Of a stretch of 58,446 nucleotides of DNA, positions 5,392-44,423 are shown one piece after another. The translations under genes were made by a program, and so were the position numbers. Positions within the stretch are counted from its first letter, which is position 1. The number at the start of each line of letters is the position of its first letter. Source of the DNA: a virus (Duplodnaviria; Caudoviricetes); IMG/VR virus record IMGVR_UViG_3300025012_000101, positions 1 through 58,446 of that record. The stretch is one strand, 5' to 3'. The notes below the pieces were generated by a model that was not told where the DNA came from, made no database searches, and saw only the letters and a program-made list of their open reading frames with translations.

Positions 5392-5411
5392 AAAAAAGCC
5401 CCGAAGGGCTT
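5392..5411 (-). terminator. Rho-independent terminator downstream of the tRNA-like att core
   Basis: Minus strand AAGCCC-TTCG-GGGCTT-TTTT; positioned to terminate the reconstituted tRNA after integration. Confidence 0.75.
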
Positions 5412-6414: not shown

Positions 6415-7319
6415 ACTGCTCTCCTTAGTGCTTCAATAACATCGCAAGCCACAACCGGTACAACTGCATTGCCCAGCATGTGCATTGCGTCCTTTGCTCG
6501 TTCTGGAAGCAGGTAATGATGAGGAAACCCCATAAACTTCCTGCACTCTTCAACCGATAGCATGCGCATGCGGTCGCCATCTATAACTGCCCAACGGTCG
6601 CGCGTCGTGATTGTTCCAACTGGGCGGCTCAGGCTACGCCCACCTCGCTCGTTTCCGTAATAGGCGGTCAGGAATCTGCTGCCATGCACTTTGCGCCCTT
6701 CCGATATGCGCGCAAGCGTAGCCACGCTGCGCCCGGCCTTGTTAATTGAAGACCATCGCCCGGCGTTGAAGTCTATGATTTCAGCCGACCCGACATGCTC
6801 GCGCCGTGGCAGGTTTAGTTCGATAGGGTGCTTGCTGCGCGTTCCGACGATAAACAGGCGGCGTCTGTGCTGCGGAACTCCATGATCGGCAGCATCAATA
6901 ATCATGGGCGATAGAGCATAGCCAAGCGCACCCATAGCAGAACACCACGCCGGGTACAGCGACCACTTGGCGAACTCAGGAACGTTCTCTACCGTGAATG
7001 ATTCTGGCCGGTGATATTCGGCAGCGCTTACGACTGCCCATGCCGTGCTTCGCTGGGCATCATGGTGCGGACGCTCCTTTCCACGCGCTCGGCTATGGCC
7101 TTGGCATGCAGGTGATGCCATAAGTAGATCATGTGCAGGAATCTGCTTCCAGTCAGCTTGATGCAAATCTTGGCAGGCATGGATAGTTTCTGGATGGTTG
7201 GCCGCATGAATATTCACGGCAGCTTGCCAATGGTTTGCCGCCCATACAACCTTAACACCGGCCATTTTTGCGCCGGTCGAAAAACCGCCAGCTCCAGCGA
7301 ATAGATCAATTGCATTCAC
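6411..7319 (-). CDS. DNA cytosine-C5 methyltransferase
   Basis: Motifs [36 protein letters not shown] and LGNAV. Confidence 0.92.
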
Positions 7320-8365
7320 GCTATCCTCTCCGGGTAGCCGTCATGCAGCACGCCATCTAGCAGGCGTCCGGCTGCTTTCTTTCCAATACGTGCGACCGCT
7401 GCATCACCTTTTCGGAAATGCCCATCCGGCTCTCGCCCGTCTCCTTGCAGGTAGCGGACGTGGCCACGGCGCAAATCGCCGCCTTCATCGCCGCCAGCAC
7501 GCGCTTGATGCGGTGCCCACTCTCCCCACTGCTTGAACAGAAACGGTACGCCAGCCTCTGCACACTGATCGCGCAGGCTTCTTGCCCAATCAGGATGTAT
7601 CGGTCGAGCGTTGGGGCCGGATTCACCGCCACAAACAACCCAGTCTATCCTTGGGTGCCCTGGGAACTCACGTTGCAACATATCAACGCGGTTCCCGTCA
7701 AAAGGAACAGTGCATGACACCGCGCCGAGCATCGGCTCAACACTGATCCAGTGAACGGCTGCTGGCGTTTGCAGCAACAGCGGGATGCGCGCGTCGGCGG
7801 CTTCCTGATTCTCGACGCTAATGCCGAGCCACACATTCGGCAGGGGGAATTGTGTGAACACGCTTACCTTATTGCCCGGATCGCCGATGTGCGATAGGTT
7901 GGCATAACGCTGTGGCTCCATCGATTCGGCGAAAGCATCACCGGCACGTACCCACTTGTCACGGACGGCGCTCAACCGTAGATAATCCAGCATCCGCTCC
8001 GTCCTCTTCGTGAGCACCTGAAACGTGTGCTGCTTCGCCAGCGCCATCACCGCAAACACTTGGTCGATAAACTCATCCGGCACGCTCTCGTGAAACAGGT
8101 CGGACATGCTGTTCACGAACACCATGCGCGGGCGCTTCCATCGAAGCGGGTCTTGCAAATGTTCCGGCACCAGCTTGATGTTCCCATTCCAGCGCTTCGT
8201 TTCTGGATTGATCGTGCCTTCGTATGGCTGGCCAGCGCCGCAGAACCGCGCGGCCATGCTCTCGGCATAGCAGTTCATGCAGCCAGCGGAAACGCGAGTG
8301 CAGCCGCGCACTGGGTTCCATGTCTCGTCAGTCCAAGCTATCCCGCCGTTGCGCTGGTCAGCCAT
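7316..8365 (-). CDS. Phage Gp37/Gp68 (DUF5131) family protein, radical-SAM-like
   Basis: IAWTDETWNPVRGCTRVSAGCMNCYA, FVNSMSDLFH, WVVCGGESG and FLFKQWG. Confidence 0.9.
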   Translation of the reverse strand: MADQRNGGIAWTDETWNPVRGCTRVSAGCMNCYAESMAARFCGAGQPYEGTINPETKRWNGNIKLVPEHLQDPLRWKRPRMVFVNSMSDLFHESVPDEFIDQVFAVMALAKQHTFQVLTKRTERMLDYLRLSAVRDKWVRAGDAFAESMEPQRYANLSHIGDPGNKVSVFTQFPLPNVWLGISVENQEAADARIPLLLQTPAAVHWISVEPMLGAVSCTVPFDGNRVDMLQREFPGHPRIDWVVCGGESGPNARPIHPDWARSLRDQCAEAGVPFLFKQWGEWAPHQARAGGDEGGDLRRGHVRYLQGDGREPDGHFRKGDAAVARIGKKAAGRLLDGVLHDGYPERIA

Positions 8366-8936
8366 TTGCAGATTCCTTGCACACGAATGGCGCGATATTC
8401 GGCGATGTCCATCCGCCCGGCTTCTTCACTTTGCCGTTTGCGTCCTTGATGGCGACGAGGCCGAGGCCGTTGCAAACTCCGCAATCAACCAATCCTCGTT
8501 CATCGCTAAAATGATGCTTCCCGTTCCCGCATGAACATTCCACCAGCTTTGCCAGATTCGCCCGCGCCACTTCCCCGGCTGCGCCTTCCACGTCAGCACC
8601 TTGAGATAGGGCGCTTCCAATGGTTACCCAGGCAAGGTCGATATCTGCGTCAAGCATGGCGGCGCGGTCTGCAAGCTCAACGGCCTTGTCGAATTCTCCG
8701 ACCTTCATCCCCTGCGAAACGTCATGCAGAATGTCGCGCAAGTGCATCAGTCGCATCACTCCGGAAACATCTGCATCAGGTTCCAGAGATATTCCTTCAA
8801 TCAGTGCATCAACCTTCTCGCACATTTCTTCCGTCTGCAACCCGATATACAGCGCCGTCTGCCGCACGTTGTAGCGGTCTGTGGTGCATCCGATGGCTTC
8901 GGTGAACTGGCGTACTACTTTGATGATGTCGGTCAT
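8358..8936 (-). CDS. MazG-like all-alpha NTP pyrophosphohydrolase with inserted Cys-rich (Zn-ribbon) segment
   Basis: EEMCE, LDADIDLAWVTIG, EVARANLAK and KDANGKVKKPGGW motifs; CSCGNG...CGVCNG insert. Confidence 0.75.
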   Translation of the reverse strand: MTDIIKVVRQFTEAIGCTTDRYNVRQTALYIGLQTEEMCEKVDALIEGISLEPDADVSGVMRLMHLRDILHDVSQGMKVGEFDKAVELADRAAMLDADIDLAWVTIGSALSQGADVEGAAGEVARANLAKLVECSCGNGKHHFSDERGLVDCGVCNGLGLVAIKDANGKVKKPGGWTSPNIAPFVCKESANG

Positions 8937-10246
8937 GCTGCTTCCCCCTTGGTATTTTGGTTAATTGAAATTGATCGTGTTGATCCGGTGTGATTAAGCA
9001 TTGCACGATACGAGCGCAGCGCGTCGGTGCGGTCGCGCCCACCTGATTCGTGCTGACGTAGGCGCTGGTGGTAGCGGCTGCGGATGTAGCGCCCGGCGGA
9101 AATATGTTGCGGCCAGACGACATAACCCAAGAAAGGAATTCCCGCGCTGGCCGGCGCAAGTCGAATCTTGTGTGGATGGATGGTCAGGCCGTCGCTGGCC
9201 AGCTTGGCGGTGATCTGTGCGCATAGGGTTTGTAATTCTTCGTGCGACTCGCCCAGGATCACCATGTCGTCCACATAGCGGATGTAACGCCGGACGCGCA
9301 TGGTTTCTTTGATCCAGTGGTCGAAGTCGTTCAGGAATATGTTGGCGAATAGCTGGCTGGACAGGTTACCGATGGGCATTCCCTTGGCTGCCGTCTGTCG
9401 ATATAGCGTGGATTCATCGAACAGATGGTCGTAGCTGCTATCTGTTTGGAACGAGTCGATTAGGTTGACCAGCAGCACGCGCAGTTCGTGATCTCCGATG
9501 TAGCGCAGCACGCGCTCCTTGAGTAGGGCGTGATTGACCGAGTAGAAATATTTGCTGATGTCGAGCTGCAATACCCAAGTGGCATTATCGCTACGAGCGA
9601 ACTGCGCCAGTCTGCGCACGGCGGCATGGGTGCCTCGGCCTGGCAGGTTTCCGTAGGTATCGTGGATGAACTTCGGCTGCCAGATCGGCAGCAGGAAGCG
9701 GTAGAGCATCCAGTGGACGATGCGGTCTTTCATCGGAGCGTCCACCACATCGCGCCATTTTTTCTCGCGCACGGTGAATGTCTTGTATGGGCCGAAGGTG
9801 TAGCCCCGCTCGCGCAGTCTTTTCTGGATGGCGATCAGATGACGCAGCGGATCAGCAGAGAATCGCTGGATGCGCAGATTGTGAGATTTGTTCTTGCGGG
9901 TATTGAGCCAGCACGCGAACAGATTCGGCAGGCCGGTTAGGTGATGAAAGTCACTACCGCATTCCACTGCGCCACCCGTAGGCATCGCAGCGGTTTCCGG
10001 TTGGGCGTGTTGCCGTGCTTTTGGAACTTGCGCTCCGGGAGATTTTCGACCAAGAGTTGACCTTCCGTGGGTATCCCCAGCGTCTAGGCCGTTTTTTCTT
10101 GGGTCAGCGGAAGCCGATGTTGTCGTTGCGATTGCTGGGCTCGTAGTTGTTGAGATTGAAGACGCCCGCATTCGAGTCGGAACCCCAGCAGCCGCCCCGG
10201 ACGAGCGCATTACCAGACCTTTCAGAAAATCCCCCTCGTTGTTCAT
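8933..10246 (-). CDS. DGR-1 reverse transcriptase (catalytic core from about the ATG at 9985; frame open from 10246)
   Basis: KDRIVH, LQLDISKYFYSV, GMPIGNLSSQLFAN (DGR-type SQ motif), YIRYVDD and FLGY. Confidence 0.95.
   Translation of the reverse strand: MNNEGDFLKGLVMRSSGAAAGVPTRMRASSISTTTSPAIATTTSASADPRKNGLDAGDTHGRSTLGRKSPGAQVPKARQHAQPETAAMPTGGAVECGSDFHHLTGLPNLFACWLNTRKNKSHNLRIQRFSADPLRHLIAIQKRLRERGYTFGPYKTFTVREKKWRDVVDAPMKDRIVHWMLYRFLLPIWQPKFIHDTYGNLPGRGTHAAVRRLAQFARSDNATWVLQLDISKYFYSVNHALLKERVLRYIGDHELRVLLVNLIDSFQTDSSYDHLFDESTLYRQTAAKGMPIGNLSSQLFANIFLNDFDHWIKETMRVRRYIRYVDDMVILGESHEELQTLCAQITAKLASDGLTIHPHKIRLAPASAGIPFLGYVVWPQHISAGRYIRSRYHQRLRQHESGGRDRTDALRSYRAMLNHTGSTRSISINQNTKGEAA
10105..10219 (-). 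repeat. DGR-1 template repeat (TR1), 115 nt, about 22 adenines, AAC-rich
   Basis: Aligns without gaps to 11163-11277 and 16241-16355; all mismatches fall at TR adenines on the minus strand. Confidence 0.96.
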
Positions 10247-11091
10247 GGCTGTGCCTGTGTTGAACGGATAAGTCCGCCGACCAAGCGGCCAAGTTCAACG
10301 GCTAGACCCGCTCTGTGCTCAAAGTTGAGCGCAAGTATGCCTAGCCTTTGAGCCTGTGCGAGATAGTGCTTGATCAGGTCAATATCGGCGGAGAGAGACT
10401 TGAGTAGCTTCTGTTTGTTGTCCTCAAGGCCGTATGCCATAACACCGCGCATGATTCGACCGATGCAGATGCGTAGATTTTCGCCATAGGTGGTGCGCAA
10501 GTCGCGCGGCATCTTGATAATGTCTTGCAGGAGCTGCGTGTCCAGGTCTTGCGCCTTGGCCTTGAGCTGGAAACATGCGGCATCTGGGCTGGATAACAGT
10601 TGGGTGGCAGCAGCCTTGTTCACCTCGCCGCGTTGCTTGAGGTCATCGATCACATCTTGGATGACTTTCGTCGAAACGGATTCCAGTACCGAATTGTTAC
10701 CTGTCGGCTGGCTGGATACATAAACTGTGTGTCCGGTTGCCTGGTTTCCCAGCGCAACGACGTATGGAATGCCGAACTCTTCGACTACCGTCCACAACCT
10801 GCGCTTGAAATTTCCGACTGGAAATCCGATGCGAATATGCGGCTCGGTTGCAGCCCCGACGAGCTTGAGCTTGTACTTTTTCAGCGTAGCCAGCGCGTAT
10901 GCCGTGCGGTCATAGCCATGGAGGAAATTACCGGATTGCACCAATATCAAGTGGCCGGCGTGTTTCTCTTCCAGCTTCTGCGCGATGGTAGCTACCGGAT
11001 CAGCCTGCCCGAGTCCAGCCTCAATGCCCTTAAAGGCGCTGATGCTGAACCTGGTCAGTTCGTCGTTTGTTGGTGTCGGTATTTCTTGCAT
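10243..11091 (-). CDS. DGR-1 accessory protein: N-terminal MutS domain I-like region fused to a C-terminal Avd-like four-helix bundle
   Basis: HLILVQSGNFLHGYDRTAYAL...IGFP resembles the MutS mismatch-binding domain I. KMPRDLRTTYGENLR...ELGRLVGGLIRS resembles Avd. It lies between target and TR. Confidence 0.8.
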   Translation of the reverse strand: MQEIPTPTNDELTRFSISAFKGIEAGLGQADPVATIAQKLEEKHAGHLILVQSGNFLHGYDRTAYALATLKKYKLKLVGAATEPHIRIGFPVGNFKRRLWTVVEEFGIPYVVALGNQATGHTVYVSSQPTGNNSVLESVSTKVIQDVIDDLKQRGEVNKAAATQLLSSPDAACFQLKAKAQDLDTQLLQDIIKMPRDLRTTYGENLRICIGRIMRGVMAYGLEDNKQKLLKSLSADIDLIKHYLAQAQRLGILALNFEHRAGLAVELGRLVGGLIRSTQAQP

Positions 11092-11113
11092 GATGTTCCT
11101 AGTTAATTTTCTA

Positions 11114-11134
11114 GGTCACGGCTACGCCGCGACC
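11114..11134 (-). promoter_or_regulatory. Hairpin 3' of VR1 (DGR target-recognition element)
   Basis: Minus strand GGTCGCGGC-GTA-GCCGTGACC, 12 nt after the stop codon; conserved after VR2. Confidence 0.75.
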
Positions 11135-11146
11135 CGTGACCCGAGA

Positions 11147-11833
11147 TCAGAGACTCTTGGTGCAGCGGAAGCCGATGCGGTCGTGGCGATAGCCGGGCCC
11201 GAAGTAGACGAGATAGAAGACGCCCGCATCCGAGCCGGAACCCCAGCAGCCGCCCCGGACGAGCGCACGACCAGACCAGTTCCGCTCTCCGTCAGGCCGC
11301 CAGCCCATACCTTTTTCTTGCGATGGGTAGGGGGCAGTGGTCAGGCTTGGCGAATCCGCCTTGATGATGGTGGTCAATCCCAAGTCATTGCCCTGCACGT
11401 CGTCAAAAATCCACGAAAATACGTTGCCGTTTAGGTCGCAAACCTTCTCGCCATTCGATAGCGTCAACCAGCGGCGCTCCTTCGCATCGGGTGATTGGAA
11501 CGTACCAGGCTGTGCGCTCGAAACATTTCCTTTGCGCAGTCCACGGAATAGCTTGCCTTCGCCCACTTTCCCCTTAGTCCAGTTGCAATCCTGCTGGGCG
11601 GCATTAAGCCTGATCGCCAGTTCCTGTCTTTCAGTGACGAGCTGGCCGCCAATGTCTACGCACGCCGCTTTTGCTTCTTCAAAGCTGATGCGCACCCACG
11701 GTGTGCCATCCTCGGTGATAACTGCTTTCCCTCCAGCTCCCTTGCTGCAAGCGAACTGCCCATACTGGAATGCGGGAACGACAAGGCCGCTTGGTAGGGT
11801 AGTTTCTGGTACGGTGATGAATAGGTTTTTCAC
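11147..11833 (-). CDS. DGR-1 target protein A (FGE-sulfatase/C-type-lectin fold, C-terminal VR)
   Basis: GTG start at 11833 with GAAAGGGA RBS; PWVRISFEEAKAAC, DLNGNVFSW and RGGCW...IGFRC motifs. Confidence 0.9.
   Translation of the reverse strand: MKNLFITVPETTLPSGLVVPAFQYGQFACSKGAGGKAVITEDGTPWVRISFEEAKAACVDIGGQLVTERQELAIRLNAAQQDCNWTKGKVGEGKLFRGLRKGNVSSAQPGTFQSPDAKERRWLTLSNGEKVCDLNGNVFSWIFDDVQGNDLGLTTIIKADSPSLTTAPYPSQEKGMGWRPDGERNWSGRALVRGGCWGSGSDAGVFYLVYFGPGYRHDRIGFRCTKSL
11163..11277 (-). repeat. DGR-1 variable repeat VR1
   Basis: 15 of 115 mismatches to TR1, all at TR adenines (7 A>G, 5 A>T, 3 A>C). Confidence 0.96.
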
Positions 11834-11858
11834 AATATCCCTTTCGTTCTGGATTGAG

Positions 11859-12680
11859 TTATTTAACGGCGTACTTGCCAAGCATCGCAGGGATGTCGTC
11901 ATTTCCAATTGCATTTACGATGCACTCGGCGAACTGTTCTGCCATTTGCTCTTCGTGTTCTTCGATCTTGATAATGCGCAGATTGATGGCTGGCTTATCA
12001 GCGCCGGTCAGAATCCCAAGGCGCATCACAAAGGTGCGCTCGGCTATGTCCTTATACGGCACGCAAGTAAAACAAATCTCGGTAGGAAGCGGCTCCGTGC
12101 TAGATGCAGTGACACTTTCAAACGCGCTCCTGCTGGCGCTAAGTTGCTGCTCGGCGCTTTCCAGCTTACGCAGCGCTTCAATACTGATCTTGCGCACTGC
12201 CGCAATGGCCTTGTTCGCCGGAACATCAGCGCCGTCCTTGTGGCACGCAATCAAGTTTATCCAGTCTTCAAGAAATTCCGCGATGGCGGATTGCGGGTAT
12301 CCCTTTCCGTCAGCAATTTTGCGCAACGACTCATATGCAGCCGTGCGCTTCTGCTCCAGCCTGGCTGTGTTGTCTGCGTGACCTGGCTTTTCTTGCGTAC
12401 CTAGATTAAGCACGGCAGTTGCAATCATGCTTTCCGGCTCGATGAAGATTGCCGCGCCGAGTTCAGCATTTTTTTTCGCATAGCTTGCGAAGTCGCCGAT
12501 TACGCTCGTTACCATTGCTCCACGCAAACGGCGGCGCGTAGGCATGAACTTTTCGAGGTCGTGTATGTTGTGGTCAGAAGGTAGTGCGATAGCGCCGGTG
12601 GATTGACGATCTATTGCCGCGTTTGCAGCCTGAATTGCTTGAGCCTTTGAGAGTTCTTTTATTACGTCTGCGTCAAACAT
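11859..12680 (-). CDS. YfdQ / DUF2303 family protein
   Basis: LEKFMPTRRRLRG, AVLNLGT--PGHADNTA and AEFLEDW motifs; follows a YfdP-like gene. Confidence 0.85.
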   Translation of the reverse strand: MFDADVIKELSKAQAIQAANAAIDRQSTGAIALPSDHNIHDLEKFMPTRRRLRGAMVTSVIGDFASYAKKNAELGAAIFIEPESMIATAVLNLGTQEKPGHADNTARLEQKRTAAYESLRKIADGKGYPQSAIAEFLEDWINLIACHKDGADVPANKAIAAVRKISIEALRKLESAEQQLSASRSAFESVTASSTEPLPTEICFTCVPYKDIAERTFVMRLGILTGADKPAINLRIIKIEEHEEQMAEQFAECIVNAIGNDDIPAMLGKYAVK

Positions 12681-12706
12681 GATTTATCCTTATATTTAGT
12701 TGATAC

Positions 12707-13081
12707 TTATTTGTTTTTTACTTCGCCAGTTTGTTTGTCCAGAAAGCTCATCTGATTTTCTGGTGCAAGTGAGAGGCGACCATATTTGCCGACATGCAGA
12801 GGCGTTACGCGCTCCTCTTTCTCGCCTGCTGTTCCGTTCAGAGTAGGGCGCGTGAAGCTGAGTTGATGAGCGCAATGAACTTGCGTGGTTCCGGGGATGC
12901 GCTTGAAACTGAATTTAAGCGTCACATCTCCAACGCGGTCGTTGTCGATTACCGCCGCCGCAACCTGAGAAAGCGCCAGAGATAACTTGCGCTCTAACAC
13001 TCCTCCATCCAGGTCTTGAATGAAACCACCGACATCTGTTCCAGCATCACTTTCTTGTTGTGCTGCGGTTTTCTGATTCAT
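12707..13081 (-). CDS. YfdP-like phage protein
   Basis: FIQDLDGGVLERKLSLALSQVA and TPLHVGKYGRLSL; usual pairing with DUF2303. Confidence 0.75.
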   Translation of the reverse strand: MNQKTAAQQESDAGTDVGGFIQDLDGGVLERKLSLALSQVAAAVIDNDRVGDVTLKFSFKRIPGTTQVHCAHQLSFTRPTLNGTAGEKEERVTPLHVGKYGRLSLAPENQMSFLDKQTGEVKNK

Positions 13082-13111
13082 GCTCTTCGCTCCTTTTGTG
13101 AGTTAAATAAT

Positions 13112-13333
13112 TTACTTGGTAAGGTAGCCTGCAATGCCACGCGCTATTGCTGGCCTGCTCCAGTTCGCCATTGCGCGCAATTTCGTGCGCATCCAGCGTG
13201 GTCGCGCTTTAAGTAGCGCATCATGGATCGGGCGCAGCGATACCGGATTTTCAGGGTGCTTGTCGTTGTAGCTCTTGCTGTTGTTGCCGACTACATTGGC
13301 GTTCCTGATTGCAGTTATAGATTGCTTTTTCAT
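13112..13333 (-). CDS. Hypothetical basic protein
   Basis: ATGA-coupled to the upstream exonuclease gene. Confidence 0.55.
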   Translation of the reverse strand: MKKQSITAIRNANVVGNNSKSYNDKHPENPVSLRPIHDALLKARPRWMRTKLRAMANWSRPAIARGIAGYLTK

Positions 13334-15102
13334 GCTACCTTCCTTTCTTCGTGCTGAATGTCGCCACGGAACTCTTGCAGAATCCAGTCCAAAGCGGCTT
13401 CATTGGTTGTGCCAAAAGTGGTTGCAACAGCATCGAGCAGTTCGGCGCGATTGGGGCGGCGCGGCGAAATTGCCTGGGCGACGGATACCGGTGCGACGGC
13501 GTGCATCACGTCGGCAAGCGTAATGGCTCCGGCTTCTTCTCCTTGAGCAGGTAATGTTGCCGGTGACGGGAACGGCCATGTAGCGACCGGGAGGGCGATA
13601 GGTGCAGGCTTTGCGTCCTGCTCATCCTTGAGCTTTGCAGCAGCCTCTATAGCCGCTTTGGCGCGCTCTTCTTCATCCGCCTTTGCTTTGGCTTCTGCTT
13701 CTGACTTTGCGCGAGTGGCGGCTTCGGCCTCAATCTTGGCCTTGGCTTTGGCTTCTTCCTCAATGCGCATTACTTCGCGCTCAGCTTCCAGCTTTTCTGC
13801 TTCGGCGACTTGGTGATCTTTTATGCGGGTTGTGATCACCAGCTTAAAATCATCCATCGGCTTGCTGATAATTTGCGCAAGATCGTTGAACAGGAAACCG
13901 AACCCGGCGGAAGTTTCTTTGCACCACGTCAGTTTGGCGAGAATGTCCTTTGCTGCTGCATCAGCTGCAATCTTTCCGTTGGCCAGTGCAGTATCGACCG
14001 CATCCATCCATGCCGACACCAGACGCTTGCCTTTCATCGCCCCGGCAAAGTCTGGCTGCTGAATATTCAGACGAATTGGTTTGATCCAAGCTTCGAGCGC
14101 GGAGATGTGTTCGGAATAAGCCGTCTTGGCACCATTCAGGATCTCCAGCTTCTTCGCTTCCTTTTCCTTCTCGACATCCTTTTCAAGTTTTAGGGCGGTG
14201 ATGCGTAAATCTTCGTGCCATGCGTCTATCATGCGCGCCGCCGCACCTATGGTCAGAGTCTGCTCAAGCATCGCTTCCTTCGCGAGCATGAGCTTCTTGC
14301 CGGTCTCGCGGTATAACTTGGCGGCAGCCTCAGCATTGGAGAAATCCTGATCAGTTACGAGGCTAGTAGCGCGGACTGTTGCCAGCGAGGCCGCCAGCGC
14401 CTTTCCGAACTCGGCCATATTGTCGTCTGTGATTTCTCCCTTCGCGTGGACGAATAGGGCCGGAAGGGACAGGATCGCTTCGGCAGCAGGCTTCTCGATA
14501 ATCTCGACGTGCTGATAGTTTTCTCGGTCTTTGTTGAATTGCTCCCATCCTGCGCGGATGCGCTCGAACCAAACAGGATCAGGCAATATATCCATGCTGA
14601 CCATGCGCTCTTCGGTGCCGTCTGATACCGTGAATATCCAACTTTCTGCACCGGATACCATCAGGCATTGCTGTGGTTGTGCCATAAATTCATCTGGCAA
14701 TTCTTTCGCTGATACTGCGGCAGCAAGTGTTTCATTCCACTGTTTATGCTCCCATCCTTTGGTGCCCGACATGCGAAGACCATCGCACGAAGCTGAAGTG
14801 CGTCCGCGAGACAGCACGACCGGATATAGCTTGCTGCTTATCTGACGCTCGACGATTGGCCTAGCCAGCGCCTCTACCTCATGCCCGTAGTCAAGGATGT
14901 TTTCCTGCACCCATGAGCTGAACTCCTTTGTGATTCCGGATGACTTCATGCGCAAAAGTTCGGTGCGTGACGTTTTTTTGGATAGGCCAAGCATCGCAGC
15001 TGCTTCGCTTGCTCCATCATGGCTCATGCGGAATTCAATCCATTCAGGAGACCCCTGGATAAGTTCGTGCTCGATCAGCTCTTCTGTCATCATCTCGTCC
15101 AT
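13330..15102 (-). CDS. YqaJ-like (lambda exonuclease family) recombination nuclease with long coiled-coil C-terminus
   Basis: QGSPEWIEFR, GASEAAAMLG, GHEVEALAR, ASCDGL and WEHK motifs. Confidence 0.88.
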   Translation of the reverse strand: MDEMMTEELIEHELIQGSPEWIEFRMSHDGASEAAAMLGLSKKTSRTELLRMKSSGITKEFSSWVQENILDYGHEVEALARPIVERQISSKLYPVVLSRGRTSASCDGLRMSGTKGWEHKQWNETLAAAVSAKELPDEFMAQPQQCLMVSGAESWIFTVSDGTEERMVSMDILPDPVWFERIRAGWEQFNKDRENYQHVEIIEKPAAEAILSLPALFVHAKGEITDDNMAEFGKALAASLATVRATSLVTDQDFSNAEAAAKLYRETGKKLMLAKEAMLEQTLTIGAAARMIDAWHEDLRITALKLEKDVEKEKEAKKLEILNGAKTAYSEHISALEAWIKPIRLNIQQPDFAGAMKGKRLVSAWMDAVDTALANGKIAADAAAKDILAKLTWCKETSAGFGFLFNDLAQIISKPMDDFKLVITTRIKDHQVAEAEKLEAEREVMRIEEEAKAKAKIEAEAATRAKSEAEAKAKADEEERAKAAIEAAAKLKDEQDAKPAPIALPVATWPFPSPATLPAQGEEAGAITLADVMHAVAPVSVAQAISPRRPNRAELLDAVATTFGTTNEAALDWILQEFRGDIQHEERKVA

Positions 15103-15103
15103 G

Positions 15104-16159
15104 TTATTGACCTTCCTTTTCCCATGCGTCAATCTGGAATTGCTGTTCGTCGGTCAGGATCATCGAAGTTTTTGCGGTAGCGATGATTGCCTTTGCCTTT
15201 TTCTTTCCGCTACGCACCAGTGGCTCCCATTCTTTGCTCAGTTCAGCGAACTGCTCGGCGGTGCAGGCTTGCAACTCTCCCTTTCCGGCAGGCTTGCCGG
15301 TTTCTCCATTGCCTTGTTCTGCCTTGTTTTGCATCACGCTTTGCCAAGTCGCTTCGCCATCCTTGATCGCGCCGAAGATTCCACGCAGCGTCACGATTTG
15401 CGGCGGTGAGCATTTGGCTAGGTCATGCCCGAGATAGGAGGCCAGATCGGTCGCGGTAACTCCGATGGAAGAGAATGCGTCCACGATGCGCTTACGCTCT
15501 GCGTCAGGGTCTTTTGCCGCATCGTCCAAGCGAATCTTTTTGATGATCTCTTCAGCTTCATCGCATAAATCGCCTGGGATGATGCGCAGTCCGAGTGAAC
15601 GCATGGCCTTTGAGATCAACGCGCCGCGCTTATTGAGCAGGTCATCGTCAGTGCCTAGTACGGTGTAAACGTCCTTGTTGTAGCTGTTCTTGCGCACGCT
15701 GATGTAGGAGCCATCGCTATTCGGCTTGCTGCGTTCAACAGTTTTCGACACGCGCACGTCAAGCGGGTAGGTAATATTCGCTTCCAGATCGGTGACTGAA
15801 ACGCGGTGAACTTCTTTTTGCTCATCCTCGAAGATCATGGTGGTTTCGACCAGCACGTTCTTCATGCAGCGCAAGGCCACCTCAACAAAACGGATGCCCA
15901 AACCTTCAACGCCTTGTCCGATTGGCTTGATGTAGTAGGCGCTCTTGTTGTTGGCGAACGATGGCCGGCGGCATTCTTTGAGCAGTTCTTGCCGCACCGA
16001 ATCCATGTTGCGCGGATTGCGCATCGCCATGATGTAGCGTGACTCGACCATCGCCTTCGACTGTGCCGCGATCGCTGTTGATGCTGTTTCGACAACCGCC
16101 ATAGTCCGGCCTGTGCCGCCGAAATCTTCTTGTGTTGCCAGTGCTGTTCTATTGTTCAT
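15104..16159 (-). CDS. Putative single-strand annealing/recombination protein
   Basis: Directly upstream of the YqaJ exonuclease in the Red-like position; conserved-looking VEGLGIRFVE and LRIIPGD segments. Family not recognised with certainty. Confidence 0.55.
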   Translation of the reverse strand: MNNRTALATQEDFGGTGRTMAVVETASTAIAAQSKAMVESRYIMAMRNPRNMDSVRQELLKECRRPSFANNKSAYYIKPIGQGVEGLGIRFVEVALRCMKNVLVETTMIFEDEQKEVHRVSVTDLEANITYPLDVRVSKTVERSKPNSDGSYISVRKNSYNKDVYTVLGTDDDLLNKRGALISKAMRSLGLRIIPGDLCDEAEEIIKKIRLDDAAKDPDAERKRIVDAFSSIGVTATDLASYLGHDLAKCSPPQIVTLRGIFGAIKDGEATWQSVMQNKAEQGNGETGKPAGKGELQACTAEQFAELSKEWEPLVRSGKKKAKAIIATAKTSMILTDEQQFQIDAWEKEGQ

Positions 16160-16191
16160 GGTGTGCTCCTGATGTAATTTTGTTTAGCGAA

Positions 16192-16212
16192 GGCCACGGC
16201 TGCGCCGCGACC
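16192..16212 (-). promoter_or_regulatory. Hairpin 3' of VR2
   Basis: Minus strand GGTCGCGGC-GCA-GCCGTGGCC, 12 nt after the stop codon, the same spacing as for VR1. Confidence 0.75.
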
Positions 16213-16224
16213 CGTGACCAGCGA

Positions 16225-17133
16225 TCAGAGACTCTTGGTGCAGCGGAAGCCGACGCCGCCGATGCGATGGCCGGGCCCGAAGACGTCGAGATAGAAGACG
16301 CCCGCATACGAGTCGGAACCCCAGCAGCCGCCCCGGACGAGCGCACCACCAGACCAGTTCCGCTCTCCGTCAGGCCGCCAGCCCATACCTTTTTCTTGCG
16401 ATGGGTAGGGGGCAGTGGTCAGCGATATGGAATCGGCAGCAATCTTGCCAGTCAGGCCGTTTTCATCGCCCTGGATGTCGTCGAATACCCATGAGTAGCA
16501 GTTGCCAGAGAAGTCGTAGATTTTTTCGCCGTTGCTCAGCTGGTGCCAGCGGCGCTCTTCTGCATCGTCGGATTCGTAGGTTCCTTCCTGCGCTTCACTG
16601 ACGTTATCTTTGTGGATGCCTTGGAAAATCTTGCCTTCGCCGACCTTGCCACCAGTCCAGTTAATGTCTTGCTGGCTGATGTCGTATGCAATGGCCAGCG
16701 CGCGGGTTTCAGCGAGAAGGTCATAACCAGCAACGGCGCAAGCTTTGCGTGCATTGTCATAGTTGATCTCGACCCAAGGCATTGCGTCAGCGACCGACTG
16801 TGGAATTCCTGCTGGGCCGCGTGATGCGATGTACTGAGCAACTTGGAAGGATGGAACCACTTTGCCGTTTGGCAGCGTAACTTCCGGCACTGTGACGAAC
16901 AGGCTGCTTGCCTTAACCGTTGCAGCCACTTTGGCGCGCAGATCGGAAGCCAGTAGAGGGTATTCAGCCGCGCACGATTCTGCGTATGCCGCAATCGCCG
17001 GGATGCCGTGCTTGTCAGTGGTGAGGTTCAGGACGAAGTATTCGTTTCCTTCATGCTTCCCGCCTGGTGCATCAGTGCCGTCGGTGCGCGTGACGTTGAA
17101 TTTATGGTAAAGACCTTGTTCGCGTTGGTTCAT
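16225..17133 (-). CDS. DGR-1 target protein B (paralog of A with an extra ~75-aa N-terminal domain)
   Basis: Same CLec/FGE motifs (PWVEINYDNARKAC, DFSGNCYSW, RGGCW...VGFRC) and the same C-terminal TKSL. Confidence 0.9.
   Translation of the reverse strand: MNQREQGLYHKFNVTRTDGTDAPGGKHEGNEYFVLNLTTDKHGIPAIAAYAESCAAEYPLLASDLRAKVAATVKASSLFVTVPEVTLPNGKVVPSFQVAQYIASRGPAGIPQSVADAMPWVEINYDNARKACAVAGYDLLAETRALAIAYDISQQDINWTGGKVGEGKIFQGIHKDNVSEAQEGTYESDDAEERRWHQLSNGEKIYDFSGNCYSWVFDDIQGDENGLTGKIAADSISLTTAPYPSQEKGMGWRPDGERNWSGGALVRGGCWGSDSYAGVFYLDVFGPGHRIGGVGFRCTKSL
16241..16355 (-). repeat. DGR-1 remote variable repeat VR2
   Basis: 16 of 115 mismatches to TR1, all at TR adenines (10 A>G, 5 A>T, 1 A>C). 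Confidence 0.96.
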
Positions 17134-18173: not shown

Positions 18174-18645
18174 GGCGTTACCTCCATAAAGTTATCCGGT
18201 TGCCCGACCTAGGGCTGGGCTGGTTTCTTTCGCACTACCAGCGGTCGCTCACCTTTCCGAGTAGTCAGGCTCCCTTGTCGCATGAGGTCTAATCGCCATT
18301 ACCTCGTTCCACTTCACTGCGCTTGCTACTCAATCAGCAGTACGGAAGCGCCTGAACTTCATCCGGCTTGCAATCGGGGGAAATCCGGCTGCCGTCAGCT
18401 CGCTTCTTCATGCTCACGGAACTATTGATCCAACCGCCTCCGTGCTGCCGACTGTTACTGCCACTGCATTCTCGCTACCGTCAGGCTTCACCGTAGTCCT
18501 GCCTATTCACCATGCCCGCGATTCAGGCTGACGCTACTTGCCGGTACTTATGGATTCCTCCACCCCGAGGGACTGAATCCTGCTCTATCCTGCGTTCGCT
18601 GCTGCTGGGCTGCCGGTATCCCGCGTTGATCTGTAGGATGGGTGA

Positions 18646-18674
18646 ATTATCGACAAGTCGATTTAATAAGTCAA
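18646..18674 (-). promoter_or_regulatory. pL-like sigma70 promoter
   Basis: TTGACT-17 bp-GATAAT on the minus strand, overlapped by operator palindromes. Confidence 0.85.
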
Positions 18675-18700: not shown

Positions 18701-18722
18701 AAAAAACCCGCCGAAGCGGGTT
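18701..18722 (-). terminator. Terminator of the cI/immunity operon
   Basis: Minus strand AACCCGC-TTCG-GCGGGTT-TTTT. Confidence 0.85.
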
Positions 18723-19735: not shown

Positions 19736-20101
19736 TCACTCCCCGCAAAATTTACCACATGATCCATCCGCGCCACGATCATCGGGAGCGTCCGGGCAAT
19801 CCCTCCAGCTACAGAAAGTTTCCGCTGCTGTTTTTTGTGCCGGGGGAAACGTGTGAAACAGAAACCACGCGCATAGGAGGAATGCCGCCCAAGCAGATGT
19901 GTTGCAAAATCTCTTCCCTTTGCGCACTCCGGCAACTACAACGGAAATCCAAAACGGCACCATGAGCTGCCAGTAGTAGATGGTCAGCGCCAAGCCAAAC
20001 AGGAATATCACCAAACAAAAAATAAGCGCCACCAACGATCCTGCGCCGTCTATCAACCCAGAAAGTACGTCGCCGATGGCGCGTATCGTTCGCTCGATCA
20101 T
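19736..20101 (-). CDS. Multi-pass membrane protein coupled to cI
   Basis: Two to three hydrophobic segments; ATGA overlap with the cI stop. Confidence 0.6.
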   Translation of the reverse strand: MIERTIRAIGDVLSGLIDGAGSLVALIFCLVIFLFGLALTIYYWQLMVPFWISVVVAGVRKGKRFCNTSAWAAFLLCAWFLFHTFPPAQKTAAETFCSWRDCPDAPDDRGADGSCGKFCGE

Positions 20102-20733
20102 ACGTCCATAACCATCTGCTTGACCACGCCGCAGATTACCGCATCAGGGCGCATTGGCATGATCGGGTAGCGTTCGTTGAGCGGCTTCAGGTAGGTTTGC
20201 CCGCCGTCGATCACCAACTGCTTAAAGGTAGCATCTGAGCCGTTCTGGCGCACGATCACGAAGCTACCGTTGCGCGCCTCTTCTTCTGGCTCGACAATCA
20301 GGATCGCGCCATTTGGGAATTTTGGCTCCATTGAGTCGCCCTGAACACGTAAGGCGTAGGTGTGTTGCTTAACGGTGACAGTTGTTGAAATCCACTCATC
20401 TGCTTGTTCGGTTGAAAAATTATCCACGGTCTCGCTCCAGTTGCCAGCCGCCACTAGGCTGATTAAAGGAACTCTTCCCCCGATGGCTATTTTTATCGGC
20501 GAGATATTACCTGTCTCTGGGTAGCCAGGTTCTTTTTTGCCTTTTCCTGTGGCGAGCCACATTGCATCCACACCTAGAGCTGTGGCAATTTGAGCTGTTG
20601 ACGGGGTTTTGTTGGTTCTCCCTCGCTCCAAGTCGGCAATAGTTGATTGCTGCACCTTTGCAGCCTTTGCAAGTGCCACCTGAGTAAGCCCGCGTTCTTT
20701 GCGCGTCGCTTTGATTCTTTCGCCTATAGCCAT
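20098..20733 (-). CDS. cI: CI-like repressor (XRE HTH plus S24 peptidase)
   Basis: HTH LTQVALA...QSTIADLERG; AG cleavage site, VQGDSMEP and TFKQL. Confidence 0.95.
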   Translation of the reverse strand: MAIGERIKATRKERGLTQVALAKAAKVQQSTIADLERGRTNKTPSTAQIATALGVDAMWLATGKGKKEPGYPETGNISPIKIAIGGRVPLISLVAAGNWSETVDNFSTEQADEWISTTVTVKQHTYALRVQGDSMEPKFPNGAILIVEPEEEARNGSFVIVRQNGSDATFKQLVIDGGQTYLKPLNERYPIMPMRPDAVICGVVKQMVMDV

Positions 20734-20805: not shown

Positions 20806-20994
20806 ATGAACTGGAAAAAACTAATTCAAGACTTGCTTGATGAAGGCATGACGCAAGTGGCTATTGCCGATGAAATCGGACTGAAACAGCCTTCTATCGT
20901 TGACATCTTGCAAGAAAATACCAAGAGCGTGCGCTGGGAAACTGGCAACAAGCTCATCGCTCTGCACAAGCGCGTCATGCGGAAGGCCGCCTAA
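20806..20994 (+). CDS. cro: Cro-like HTH regulator
   Basis: 62 aa, GMTQVAIADEIGLKQPSI; divergent from cI. Confidence 0.88.
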   Translation: MNWKKLIQDLLDEGMTQVAIADEIGLKQPSIVDILQENTKSVRWETGNKLIALHKRVMRKAA

Positions 20995-41152: not shown

Positions 41153-42718
41153 ATGATTCAACTTTTCGCAAATAACGCCGCCAGCCTGCTGGCATCCAGC
41201 CTGACCAACGTAGCTACCAGCTTGTCGATTACGGCTGGTGCAGGGGTAAAGTTCCCGTCTCCAACCGGAGGCGATTATTTCAAGGCAACATTGTGCCAAC
41301 TTTCGGGCGTGGACGAGGTAAATTTCGAGATCGTGAAAGTGACGGCAAAATCAACCGATACTTTTACTATTGTCAGGGCGCAGGAAGGCACAACGGCGCT
41401 GGCATTCAATGCAGGCGACAAGTTTGAATTGCGAATCACTAAGGGAACGCTTGAGACGTTTGCGCTGAACTCAAGCGACAACATCAATAACGTTGGCATT
41501 CCAGGCGCAGCCGGGTTTGGCGTTGGCATTTGCCCGACGCTCCCAGCAGGGTTTGTTGCAATGTCTGGATACGATCAGCCAGGCACAGACAACTACGGCA
41601 ACTATCAGTACAGCGACGGCAGTATCATGGTCTGGATACCAGCCTTCTTTTACAAGTACGGCACCGGATCGAATGGTTTTGCAGTCAACATCGTGGATAT
41701 TAAGCCGGAATCGGCTTACGCGAATGAAGCGGCTGCCAATGCCGCAGGTTATGCGCTACATCGGGCATTTTACGATGGCGGCGCGGTGCAGCGCGGCGTG
41801 TTCGTTGACAAGTATAAATGCTCTGCCAATGCTGGCATCGCATCCAGCATCAAAAACGGCATTCCGATGTCGAGCAATTCTGCCAATAATCCGTTCAGCG
41901 TCTGCACTGCAAACGGCCAGACGCCGGCACAGTTTTACTACGGCGCTATTGCCGCCGCGAAGTCGCGCGGAAATAACTTTTTCCCCGGTAGTATGTTCAT
42001 TCGTGGCGCGCTGGCGCTGCTGGCGCTGGCACACGCGCAAGCCTCAACCGCAACGACGTGGTGCGCCTGGTATCACGCCACAAACAACTTCCCCAAAGGC
42101 TGCAACAACAACGCGCTTGGCGATCAGAACGATGCAGAACTGTTGTTTGTAACGTCCGGGTACTCAACCGCCAATAAAACCGGCAGTGCGAACGTGCTGG
42201 CCAAGACCACGCACAACGGTCAGAACTGCGGCGTGGCTGATGTGAACGGCACGTTATGGGAAGTGTGTCTGGGCATCACGTCCGATGCGACCAACTTCTA
42301 CGTCCTCAAAACCAGCGCGGCGATGAAGAACATCACATCAGGAAACACCGGCGCTACAGACGCATGGGGCGCTACCGGCATTACTGCGCTATACGACAGC
42401 CTCGGCGCGACCTACGGTGCGCTGACTGCATCCAGCACGGCAAAGTTATATGGCTCGGCAACACAGGTGTTTGATGCTGCAACCAGCGGAAATGCGTGGA
42501 ATGCAGCTGGCGCAGGAATTCCGCTGGTTGGTGGTGTTGGCGGAACGAATGCCTTTGGCAATGACGGTCTATGGGATTACAGGCCAAACGAGATGTGCCC
42601 GATTGCCGCGGGTAGCTGGAGCGCCGCGGCGGCCGCGGGGGCGTGGGCGTTGAATCTCAGCACCGTGCGTGGCAGCTCGGCCACCACCGTTGGGTTGCGC
42701 GCGGCCTTGTATCTTTGA
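41153..42718 (+). CDS. DGR-2 target: tail fibre / major tropism determinant-like receptor-binding protein with C-terminal CLec VR
   Basis: N-terminal virion anchor (FANNAASLL, EIVKVT, TIVRAQEGT); MVWIPAF, VDKYKCS and HNGQNCGVADVNGTLWE; VR at the C-terminus. Confidence 0.92.
   Translation: MIQLFANNAASLLASSLTNVATSLSITAGAGVKFPSPTGGDYFKATLCQLSGVDEVNFEIVKVTAKSTDTFTIVRAQEGTTALAFNAGDKFELRITKGTLETFALNSSDNINNVGIPGAAGFGVGICPTLPAGFVAMSGYDQPGTDNYGNYQYSDGSIMVWIPAFFYKYGTGSNGFAVNIVDIKPESAYANEAAANAAGYALHRAFYDGGAVQRGVFVDKYKCSANAGIASSIKNGIPMSSNSANNPFSVCTANGQTPAQFYYGAIAAAKSRGNNFFPGSMFIRGALALLALAHAQASTATTWCAWYHATNNFPKGCNNNALGDQNDAELLFVTSGYSTANKTGSANVLAKTTHNGQNCGVADVNGTLWEVCLGITSDATNFYVLKTSAAMKNITSGNTGATDAWGATGITALYDSLGATYGALTASSTAKLYGSATQVFDAATSGNAWNAAGAGIPLVGGVGGTNAFGNDGLWDYRPNEMCPIAAGSWSAAAAAGAWALNLSTVRGSSATTVGLRAALYL
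42593..42707 (+). repeat. DGR-2 variable repeat VR3
   Basis: 18 of 115 mismatches to TR2, all at TR adenines (11 A>G, 7 A>C). Confidence 0.96.
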
Positions 42719-42742
42719 TGCCTGAGCGATAGCGATGGGCAT
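42718..42742 (+). promoter_or_regulatory. Imperfect hairpin 3' of VR3, overlapping the avd start
   Basis: ATGCCTGAGC-GATA-GCGATGGGCAT. Confidence 0.5.
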
Positions 42743-43145
42743 TCACGATGAGGCGAAGCTGGATAAGAAATTCATGGAATTCGCCAAGTTGATGAACATC
42801 CACCTCAACCACTTCCCGAAGCATGAGAAGTACGGACTCGCGCTTGAAATCAGGCGTGCTGCCTATGAGATGTATGGCTTTATCGTAGAGGCGCAAAAGC
42901 GCTATCACAAGAAAACCGCAATGACCAACCTTGATACCCGGCATGAGCAGTTGCGCATGTTGGTGCGCCTTGCGTACACGCTGGGGTATTTTGAATTCAA
43001 GGATGGTCAGCGTGCAGAAAAATCACCATCCGAGTTAGGCGAGCATCGTTATCTCGCGCTGTCTCGGCTGGTGGATGAATTAGGCAGGATGATCGGCGGA
43101 TGGATTGTCGCCGAGCGCCTGCTTGATAAACGGGAGGCGTCTTAA
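42735..43145 (+). CDS. avd: DGR accessory variability determinant
   Basis: HFPKHEKYGLALEIRR...VDELGRMIGGWI; lies between target and TR. Confidence 0.92.
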   Translation: MGIHDEAKLDKKFMEFAKLMNIHLNHFPKHEKYGLALEIRRAAYEMYGFIVEAQKRYHKKTAMTNLDTRHEQLRMLVRLAYTLGYFEFKDGQRAEKSPSELGEHRYLALSRLVDELGRMIGGWIVAERLLDKREAS

Positions 43146-43146
43146 T

Positions 43147-43261
43147 ATGTGCCCGATTGCCGCAGGTAACTGGAACAACGCGGCGAACGCAGGAGCGTGG
43201 GCGTTGAATCTCAACAACGTGCGTGACAACTCGAACAACAACGTTGGGTTGCGCGCGGACT
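43147..43261 (+). repeat. DGR-2 template repeat (TR2), about 29 adenines
   Basis: AAC-rich ungapped copy of 42593-42707. Confidence 0.96.
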
Positions 43262-43400
43262 CGGTTTCACCTCACAGGCCGCATTTTGGTCATAGTGGAA
43301 TCAAGGGAGACGCTTTCCGGCGCGTGGTGAAAGCCACGGCGAAATCGGTATGCTTCCGCCTTTCTGGTAGGGCGGAAGATCGTCTCGAAGGTCTGGCGAC

Positions 43401-44423
43401 ATGAAGCGTATCGGCCATCTATATGAGCAGGCTTTTACCCGCGAGGCGTTGCTGATCGCATTTCACGCGGCGGCGCGCAACAAGCGCGGCAAGCGTGCTT
43501 GCTTCAACTTTGAAAAAAGCCTCGCCAGCAATCTGGACGCCCTCCACAACGAGCTGAGTAACGGGAGTTATAAGCCGCGCCCATACTACAGTTTCATGGT
43601 CTACGAACCGAAGCCGCGCCGCATCTATGCTCCGGCCTTCCGCGATCTGGTGGTGCAGCACGCCATCTATCGCGTGGTCGCGCCAATCTTCGAGTGCGGA
43701 TTCATCGACCAGTCGTTCGCCTGCCGCATCGGCTACGGAACACACAAGGCCGCAGATTACGCGCAGGCCGCATTACAGCAGATACCGCGCGACAGCTACA
43801 CACTCAAGCTGGACATCCGCAAGTTCTTCTACCGCATCGACCGCAGCATCCTGCGCACGCAGATCGAGCGCAAGATCAAGGATGCCCGCTTTGTTGACCT
43901 GATGACGATGTTCGCCGACCACGGCGAACCGGAAGGCATCCCAATCGGGAATCTACTGTCGCAACTCTACGCGCTGATCTACCTGAACCCGCTGGATCAC
44001 TACATCAAGCGCGAGCTGGGCATCAAGCACTACTGCCGATATGTGGACGATTTCGTGTTATTTGGTATCAGCCGCGAGCGAGCGCTGGAATGCCAGCGCC
44101 TGATCATTGATTTCATCCGGCGCGAACTCGGTCTGGAGCTATCCAAGTCTACCATCGCGCCAGTGGCGCGCGGCATCAACTTCGTCGGCTATCGCACCTG
44201 GGCTAGCAAGCGCTTCATCCGCCGCCACAGTCTAGGTAATTACCGCGTAGCGATGCGCCGTGGTGAGATTGAATCCGCTGCATCAATTCTTGGCCATGCA
44301 CGCCATACCCATTCGTTGCAGCACATGCTGCGTTATTCCAAGGAGCAGCACCATGCCAACCATTGTCGCCTACCGCAAATATATCGATCCAGAGATCACG
44401 CGCGAACTTCGCCTGCCTGTTGA
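43401..44423 (+). CDS. DGR-2 reverse transcriptase
   Basis: APAFRDLVVQHA, LKLDIRKFF, GIPIGNLLSQ, YCRYVDDF and NFVGY. Confidence 0.96.
   Translation: MKRIGHLYEQAFTREALLIAFHAAARNKRGKRACFNFEKSLASNLDALHNELSNGSYKPRPYYSFMVYEPKPRRIYAPAFRDLVVQHAIYRVVAPIFECGFIDQSFACRIGYGTHKAADYAQAALQQIPRDSYTLKLDIRKFFYRIDRSILRTQIERKIKDARFVDLMTMFADHGEPEGIPIGNLLSQLYALIYLNPLDHYIKRELGIKHYCRYVDDFVLFGISRERALECQRLIIDFIRRELGLELSKSTIAPVARGINFVGYRTWASKRFIRRHSLGNYRVAMRRGEIESAASILGHARHTHSLQHMLRYSKEQHHANHCRLPQIYRSRDHARTSPAC

Follow-up and report, generated by a model that had tools for sequence, protein, structure and literature searches.

Diversity-generating retroelements (DGRs) of phages are mostly understood as receptor-switching devices. 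What, then, would such an element diversify when it lies among the early genes of a phage whose tail fibre already has a DGR of its own? We address this question for IMG/VR record IMGVR_UViG_3300025012_000101, a viral DNA of 58,446 nucleotides that was analysed over its whole length and is called the window below. A cassette on its minus strand, between positions 8,933 and 17,133, comprises a gene for a reverse transcriptase (RT1), a template repeat (TR1), an accessory gene, and two target genes (A and B) that each contain a variable repeat (VR1 and VR2). A first-pass annotation, made from the letters of the DNA, had proposed that this cassette is expressed early and hypermutates two paralogous cytoplasmic proteins that are not part of the virion. 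As far as can be judged from its sequence, the early-arm element is a real and complete DGR. Our preferred explanation, which we rate at somewhat better than even, is that it is active and diversifies target proteins that act early and inside the cell.

Adenine-restricted differences between template and variable repeats

On the coding (minus) strand, every difference between TR1 and the two variable repeats falls on a template adenine, at 15 sites in VR1 and at 16 in VR2 (Table 1), exactly as the first-pass annotation had reported. The repeat boundaries that it had drawn are also right, as mismatches beyond the limits of TR1 and the VRs lose their restriction to template adenines. Read in the frame of the targets, TR1 contains 14 variable codons, of which eight are AAY and none is able to turn into a stop codon. 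Over these 14 codons the template has a capacity of about 1e13 protein variants per target.

The two VRs share one 3' end, in which GCTG is followed by CA, whereas in TR1 it is followed by AC. A GC-rich inverted repeat (GGTCACGG ... CCGTGACC) is conserved downstream of both VRs and is absent at TR1, although the fold z-scores of its two copies (-2.1 and +0.5) are unremarkable. The VR-specific 3' ends and the GC-rich repeats together have the appearance of sites for the initiation of mutagenic homing (IMH).

The 119-nt spacer between TR1 and the RT1 gene, which corresponds to the Sp-like part of a DGR RNA, has a conserved predicted fold (RNAalifold, nine sequences) with 41 base pairs, five of which show compensatory changes. 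In this fold the 3' end of the TR, GACCCAAGA, pairs with the downstream sequence TCTTGGTC. An Rfam scan of the whole window returned no family.

At their 3' ends the two targets are 85% identical over 300 nt, counted to 34 nt past the stop codon (11113-11412 and 16191-16490), in contrast to 59% protein identity overall between targets A and B. The 3' ends of the targets are therefore kept alike, either by constraint on the fold or by conversion linked to homing.

Reverse transcriptase and accessory protein

The translation of RT1 contains both IGNLSSQ and YVDD, the motifs on which the gene had first been recognised. It matches the PHROG family phrog_1423, 'Reverse transcriptase' (E = 8e-104, residues 86-426 of the long open reading frame), and Pfam RVT_1 (E = 1e-27). 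Among solved structures it is closest to 8ub7, 'Reverse transcriptase' (E = 6e-36), which we take to be the BPP-1 RT complex; group II intron and retron reverse transcriptases follow at about 1e-14. The RT gene is real, but its limits need revision. It had been drawn as the long open reading frame (ORF) 8933-10246, which runs upstream through TR1. Because homology to reverse transcriptases begins only at residue 86 of this frame, RT1 probably starts at the ATG at 9985, and the TR1 stretch of the frame is probably not translated.

The accessory protein matches phrog_3206, 'Avd protein of DGR', over residues 174-280 (E = 1.7e-7). Its match to Pfam bAvd (E = 9.6e-4, 20.1 bits) lies under the cut-off of 40. 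The likeness to Avd is confined to the C-terminal ~107 residues, and the predicted model places four long helices at residues 169-277 (predicted local distance difference test, pLDDT, 55-73).

The first ~170 residues of the accessory protein are conserved among relatives and may form a domain like MutS domain I (MSL), an idea suggested by a motif of the MutS N-terminus. Sub-threshold matches to PF01624 (E about 0.08) were obtained with ORFs of 275 aa and 285 aa from two related genomes, and coordinate mapping identifies the 275-aa ORF as the accessory gene. An hhalign comparison of the N-terminal domain (10-sequence alignment) with MutS_I fell in the expected register, at a probability of only 1.6%. 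Pfam gave no match to this domain even at E of 10, and a search of the accessory protein sequence against solved structures gave nothing meaningful. The model is poor overall (pLDDT 49, and below 50 in the N-terminal domain) and unfit for a fold search.

Conservation and probable activity in related phages

A search with target B gave 707 homologues (E up to 0.001). The set of targets, accessory gene and RT is found together at 9 of 20 IMG/VR viral loci. Target B is followed by a phrog_3657 gene at eight of these 20 loci, and a RecE-like gene comes next in six of the eight. At 25 of 42 betaproteobacterial genome loci the accessory gene lies beside the targets, and the RT was also found at 22 of the 25. 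The hosts include Gallionella, Rhodocyclaceae, Thauera, Aromatoleum, Methylotenera, and Oxalobacteraceae, with one to four targets per locus. The largest array seen (L048, 7189-12900) has four tandem target-A-like genes before the accessory gene and the RT.

Annotated gene by gene, a Methylotenera prophage carries O-like, DnaB and CII genes on one strand. On the other strand it has CI, a target A-like gene, HNH, a target B-like gene, the accessory gene, a methylase, the RT, and an integrase, a topology that matches the left arm of the window. The early-region layout is thus a recurrent one, shared by viral loci, genome loci and this prophage, and the cassette family appears to be common in betaproteobacterial prophages.

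Adenine-specific variation, which the first-pass annotation had expected of an active element, is present in related phages. At nine viral loci with a TR we compared 15 VRs with their own templates, and 11 differ at adenines only; three of the others have a single non-A difference, and one is out of register through an indel. Among nine close homologues of target B, identity is 89-97% over residues 1-262 but drops to 64-69% over the residues encoded by the VR. We consider the early-arm DGR to be probably active. Assembly contigs of the probable source run (Logan contigs, four runs) break at TR1, VR1 and VR2, which is uninformative on heterogeneity because the three repeats share stretches longer than the assembly word. 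A variant contig of VR1 from three other runs, with 15 differences, 10 of them at TR-adenine sites, was not counted, because its source is a related phage that has a TR of its own.

Nine Massilia/Telluria loci (L047, L049-L053, L055-L057; match ~10001-10675) contain a target-A-like gene whose 'VR' (...GGSWSSQEGAGVFTVVDERP...) is near-identical between species. No TR, Avd or RT was found within 10 kb of the gene at any of the nine loci, and in L053 it is located between a carbamoyltransferase gene and spoT. The Massilia/Telluria gene has the appearance of a chromosomal relative of the phage targets that has become fixed.

Two paralogous targets with a C-type-lectin fold

Both targets have the fold shared by the formylglycine-generating enzyme (FGE) and C-type lectins. 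The gene for target A, first read as 255 codons, is a real target gene of this kind, but it is shorter than proposed. An AAAGGGA ribosome-binding site precedes the GTG at 11833 and the similarity to relatives begins at this codon, so translation probably starts there, giving 228 aa. Target A matches phrog_2889 and phrog_9572, and target B matches phrog_9572 (E = 3.5e-45). The Pfam FGE-sulfatase scores (26.6 bits for target A and 25.5 for target B) lie just above the cut-off of 23.3. The AlphaFold2 model of target B (pLDDT 90.1) retrieves TaqVP as the best Foldseek match (E = 5.9e-8), followed by formylglycine-generating enzymes, PvdO, Mtd and TvpA, at 11-16% identity. Because the similarity is at the level of the predicted fold, with weak Pfam scores and low identity, we class the targets by the FGE fold and not as FGE enzymes. 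A sequence search of the target profile against solved structures gave nothing meaningful.

Scans with Pfam, PHROG and PADLOC found no fibre, immunoglobulin (Ig) or effector (NTPase, kinase) domain in the targets. In addition, a home-made script found no lipobox, Tat motif or hydrophobic N-terminus in any of 121 family members (the targets and 119 homologues), among which the highest hydropathy of an N-terminal 12-residue segment is 1.32. Pfam, AlphaFold2, Foldseek and the motif script therefore agree with the initial description of the targets as paralogous proteins of this fold with no signal peptide or fibre anchor.

Target A corresponds to the fold of target B without its first ~75 residues. 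These residues form an N-terminal domain in target B that is widespread as a small phage domain. We found 2125 cluster representatives at E up to 0.001, and the best 150 of them are mostly stand-alone proteins of 80-150 aa. It can also be part of a larger protein, attached at one end or the other. A scan of 35 longer carriers found a Lar-like restriction-alleviation domain in one (just below the cut-off) and DUF551 in one. Pfam gave no family for the domain even at E of 10, and its best score in the ESM Atlas (0.75) is below the meaningful level. Its PHROG label, 'sulfatase-modifying factor enzyme', stems only from fused members.

Among 50,697 deposited phages we found no near-identical or protein-level relative of the 8.2-kb region, and target B has a single match there, restricted to the N-terminal domain. 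The domain is present in six cultured phages. In all three of those examined its gene is located in a replication or DNA-metabolism module: among primase, ParB-like nuclease and HNH genes in PBb001, near SSB in Tabio, and among DNA polymerase, dNMP phosphatase, ligase, resolvase and exonuclease genes in JWF.

Position in the left arm and expected expression

The host phage is a lambda-like temperate phage of Betaproteobacteria. Bases 1-126 recur at 58318-58443 of the window, which indicates a genome of ~58.3 kb that is predicted to be circular or terminally redundant. The plus-strand right arm contains Cro-like, O-like and P-like replication genes, NinB, terminase, portal, major head and fibre genes, together with a very large internal-protein-like ORF. 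The minus-strand left arm extends from a CI-type repressor through to a tyrosine integrase (4318-5295) and includes the early cassette.

Reading along the minus strand, CI is followed by three small genes, a hairpin, a promoter-like site, a leader of ~470 nt, small ORFs, and target B. After target B come a phrog_3657 gene, a RecE-like exonuclease gene, small genes, DUF2303, and target A, and then the accessory gene, TR1, RT1, a MazG-like gene and DUF5131. The arm ends with a C5 methylase gene, SSB, a hairpin (5411-5396) and the integrase. The cassette is thus ~24 kb away from the tail-fibre genes, on the CI/integrase strand opposite the structural genes and amid genes for recombination and DNA metabolism, and its distance from the tail genes had been correctly noted at the outset.

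Whether the arm is a CI-repressed pL operon, as the first-pass annotation had it, is less firmly settled. Its best promoter-like site resembles pL, and a palindrome, ATCGACTTGTCGAT, overlaps the spacer and the -10 element of this candidate. The 9-mer ATTTCGATA has two copies only in the window, one at the promoter candidate and one in the CI/Cro intergenic region. From this site and the adjacent hairpin we infer a pL-like start of the operon, and the palindrome with the shared 9-mer indicates, indirectly, that CI may control it, but the promoter and terminator scans overall did not yield more sites than shuffled sequences. The left-arm scan detected no promoter or terminator belonging to the targets themselves. 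The G+C content is even across the cassette and the start of target B overlaps the stop codon of the preceding small ORF, which argues against a separately expressed moron.

Two neighbouring features were also recorded. The leader (18174-18645, minus strand) has no ORF of at least 40 aa on that strand and no Rfam match; there may be an antitermination RNA or a very small gene in it. The DUF5131 protein (7316-8365, minus strand; Pfam E = 3e-98) matches the PADLOC candidate defence models PDC-M41B and PDC-M30B (E about 1e-74).

The separate, canonical DGR that had been assigned to the tail fibre is indeed present in the right arm, with all 18 mismatches of its VR at template adenines, and its target is, by sequence context, a predicted tail-fibre or virion receptor-binding protein of the Mtd type. 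In a related 84-kb contig (L018, shared with L006), a further RT2-like RT gene is located at 15891-16658 on the opposite strand, ~4 kb from the early-arm cassette, so two DGRs per genome may be common in the related phage group. Elsewhere in the window, the ORFs 51189-58445 and 3-4310 are by their coordinates in frame across the 126-bp terminal repeat. The joined gene of ~3,800 codons has PHROG matches to lysin-like, DarB-like antirestriction, and large internal-virion-protein families.

Table 1. Coordinates of the early-arm cassette, its predicted control sites and the tail-fibre DGR in the window
Feature	Position	Strand	Description
RT1, DGR reverse transcriptase	8933..9985	-	~350 aa from the probable start; phrog_1423, RVT_1, motifs
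Spacer (Sp-like) part of the DGR RNA	9986..10104	-	between TR1 and RT1; fold predicted with RNAalifold
TR1	10105..10219	-	115 nt; 22 A on the coding strand
Avd-containing accessory protein	10243..11091	-	282 aa; between TR1 and target A
GC-rich inverted repeat at VR1	11114..11141	-	just 3' of VR1 and the stop codon
Target A	11147..11833	-	228 aa from the probable start, GTG 11833; FGE/C-type-lectin fold only; longest ORF extends to 11914
VR1 (in target A)	11163..11277	-	15/15 mismatches to TR1 at template A
GC-rich inverted repeat at VR2	16192..16219	-	3' of VR2
Target B	16225..17133	-	302 aa; N-terminal domain of ~75 aa and FGE/C-type-lectin fold
VR2 (in target B)	16241..16355	-	16/16 mismatches to TR1 at template A
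N-terminal domain of target B	16897-17133	-	residues 1-79; about 70-75 aa
Terminator-like hairpin	5396..5411	-	precedes the integrase, at the far end of the left arm
pL-like promoter candidate	18646..18674	-	TTGACT-17-GATAAT; best site of the arm, 10/12 matches
Terminator-like hairpin	18705..18722	-	immediately upstream of the promoter candidate; would terminate the CI transcript
CI-type repressor	20098..20733	-	helix-turn-helix (HTH) and S24 peptidase
Cro-like HTH gene	20806-20994	+	divergent from CI; O-like and P-like replication genes next on the + strand
Canonical second DGR	41153..44423	+	fibre target, Avd, TR, RT
Tail-fibre DGR target	41153-42718	+	N-terminal tail-fibre domain
VR of the tail-fibre DGR	42593-42707	+	18/18 mismatches to its TR at A
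Avd of the tail-fibre DGR	42735-43145	+	
TR of the tail-fibre DGR	43147-43261	+	
RT of the tail-fibre DGR	43401-44423	+	

Where the diversified proteins may act

From its parts, the cassette would be expected to follow the BPP-1 mechanism. RT1 and the Avd-containing accessory protein would jointly copy the RNA consisting of TR1 and spacer, and adenines would be misread in the process. The cDNA would then replace the 3' ends of both paralogous target genes at the sites formed by the IMH-like end and the inverted repeat. Cassette and targets would be expressed inside the cell, soon after infection or induction. Every progeny genome would carry its own pair of intracellular binders, and these pairs would be tried in the next infected cell with the link between genotype and phenotype kept.

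Selection on the output of a diversity generator requires such a link, and an early protein in a cell that has just been entered by its own genome keeps it, which favours early, intracellular targets. The location of the target genes, the domain content of the targets and the settings in which the N-terminal domain of target B occurs likewise make it fairly likely that the targets are early, intracellular, non-virion proteins. In tblastn screens of the flanks (up to 10 kb), none of the 20 viral and 42 genome loci had a relative of the terminase, portal, capsid or fibre genes of the window.

Several points weigh on the other side. The FGE/C-type-lectin fold is best known from surface and virion proteins, such as Mtd and the cellular lipoprotein TvpA, and the neighbours found in BFVD are mostly tail fibres. 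The test for signal peptides was a simple hydropathy and motif script rather than a trained predictor, and diverged structural genes could escape the tblastn flank screen. PADLOC matched neither the targets nor their small neighbours, and it is the result for the targets that counts here, as does the yield of the promoter and terminator scans. More generally, we infer the early timing, the intracellular location and the ligand of the targets alike.

The fold is common not only to Mtd, TvpA and TaqVP but also to many phage tail-collar fibre proteins, as would be expected if the targets were extracellular, that is, auxiliary receptor-binding or decoration proteins of the virion, or soluble adhesins released at lysis. 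Phage DGRs with two targets have been interpreted in this sense, with the tentaclins, another class of second target, taken as adhesins (PMC10743442). However, targets A and B have no anchor, Ig or fibre domain, and their early-arm genes run opposite to the structural genes. A fibre-anchored DGR target is already present in this genome, the N-terminal domain of target B travels with replication modules, and a released public good would break the link between genotype and benefit. We consider extracellular targets unlikely.

A role in the lysogen, in which the targets would be variable sensors or exclusion factors against incoming phages and would be expressed from the prophage, seems to us quite doubtful. 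Cellular DGRs do diversify cytoplasmic lectin-fold sensors (PMC10907252), and the product of the nearby DUF5131 gene matches candidate defence models. However, the targets carry no effector, NTPase or kinase domain. Their genes are embedded among recombination genes; the base composition shows no break there, no promoter or terminator specific to them was detected, and they lie downstream of the terminator that would end the CI transcript. That the cassette is a decaying or silent relic whose adenine-specific differences are historical is very improbable, given that all its parts are intact, its template is unable to create stops, covariation is seen in its spacer RNA, the differences between close relatives lie mainly in the VR, and the cassette is conserved across dozens of loci.

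For early, intracellular targets, the nature of the ligand is a matter of speculation. The likeliest class would be a variable molecule of the host or of a rival mobile element, for example an immunity protein, but we offer this only tentatively, at well below even odds. Just as tentative is the idea of an antibody-like counter-defence, in which a library of intracellular lectin-fold binders would be made in each lytic round and selected in the next host.

Relation to known systems

The cassette shares with the BPP-1 DGR (mtd-avd-TR-brt) an RT, an Avd-like protein and a TR with A-to-N differences, as well as a C-terminal VR in a C-type-lectin-fold target, an IMH-like end with a GC-rich inverted repeat, and a TR-spacer RNA. 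However, Mtd of BPP-1 is the tip of the tail fibre and is encoded in the late structural module, whereas the targets described here are short, anchorless and encoded in the early arm. This cassette also differs in its 282-aa accessory protein with an extra N-terminal domain and in its two targets, one of which is 5 kb away.

Non-structural targets of phage DGRs have been reported before. The Quimbyvirus DGR (Benler et al. 2021, PMC8008677) has one structural target and one non-structural target 'nested within defense-related genes', an arrangement that was then termed unprecedented. A 2025 study (PMC12629997) describes a second, distal VR near counter-defence genes in four cultured gut prophages, and in both papers the distal target is placed in phage-host conflict. 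As here, these targets are in a non-structural module, on the other strand, and near methyltransferases or counter-defence-like genes; the neighbours in our window are the C5 methylase, MazG-like pyrophosphohydrolase, DUF5131, SSB and RecE-like exonuclease genes. In those Bacteroidota phages, however, one tail-adjacent cassette serves both the structural and the distal target. In contrast, the betaproteobacterial phage described here has a separate, complete early-arm cassette with its own RT, Avd and TR, and with non-structural targets only.

The suggestion in the first-pass annotation of an undescribed system must therefore be narrowed. Phage DGR targets of the non-structural kind are already in the literature just cited, but this cassette family was not found in print. 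The search covered full-text literature, with subscription journals and bioRxiv supplements outside it, and found no early-arm cassette with non-structural targets only. What is new relative to the known cases is such a separate cassette coexisting with a fibre DGR. The fused accessory protein, the N-terminal domain of target B, and the occurrence in betaproteobacterial prophages, including those of culturable hosts, are also distinctive.

Other DGR classes share single features with this one. In the survey of Roux et al. 2021, viral DGR targets are mostly tail proteins and the rest are 'unknown'. TvpA of Treponema and TaqVP of Thermus (FGE-type, category b of Wu et al. 2018) are of the same fold class, small, and have few added domains, whereas the targets described here are phage-encoded and have no detected lipobox or signal peptide. 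MSL proteins, of 112-283 aa, always occur together with avd in Wu et al. 2018, and a review equates the MSL domain with PF01624. In the DGR of Legionella and in others that contain MSL (Wu et al. 2018), an extra accessory domain is also present alongside Avd; however, in our cassette the extra domain is fused to Avd. The supplementary table of that study gives the Legionella target as DUF1566/CLec2 type and lists other betaproteobacterial multi-target cassettes of the DUF1566 type. A word search of the table found no entry that could be equated with the early-arm family. The cellular sensors of Dore et al. 2024 are likewise cytoplasmic lectin-fold targets in biological conflict, but they are chromosomal and carry signalling or effector domains, whereas the targets here have none and are encoded by phage early genes.

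Implications

To our knowledge, this would be the cleanest genomic case that a DGR diversifies proteins active inside the infected cell. Cultured, non-pathogenic strains of Aromatoleum, Thauera, Methylotenera and Pseudoduganella carry the cassette family, among them Aromatoleum toluclasticum, Thauera butanivorans, Methylotenera oryzisoli and Pseudoduganella rivuli. In such tractable hosts the role of non-structural phage DGR targets, a question raised for gut phages in 2021 and again in 2025, becomes testable. If the counter-defence reading were true, the selected variants would neutralise the variable immunity protein or rival prophage protein of the infected cell. The phage would then have two hypermutation systems, that of the fibre for entry and the other for survival inside. 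If the ligands are immunity proteins, the early-arm cassette would amount to an anti-defence system that can be programmed, and would offer a natural scaffold for binders that work inside cells.

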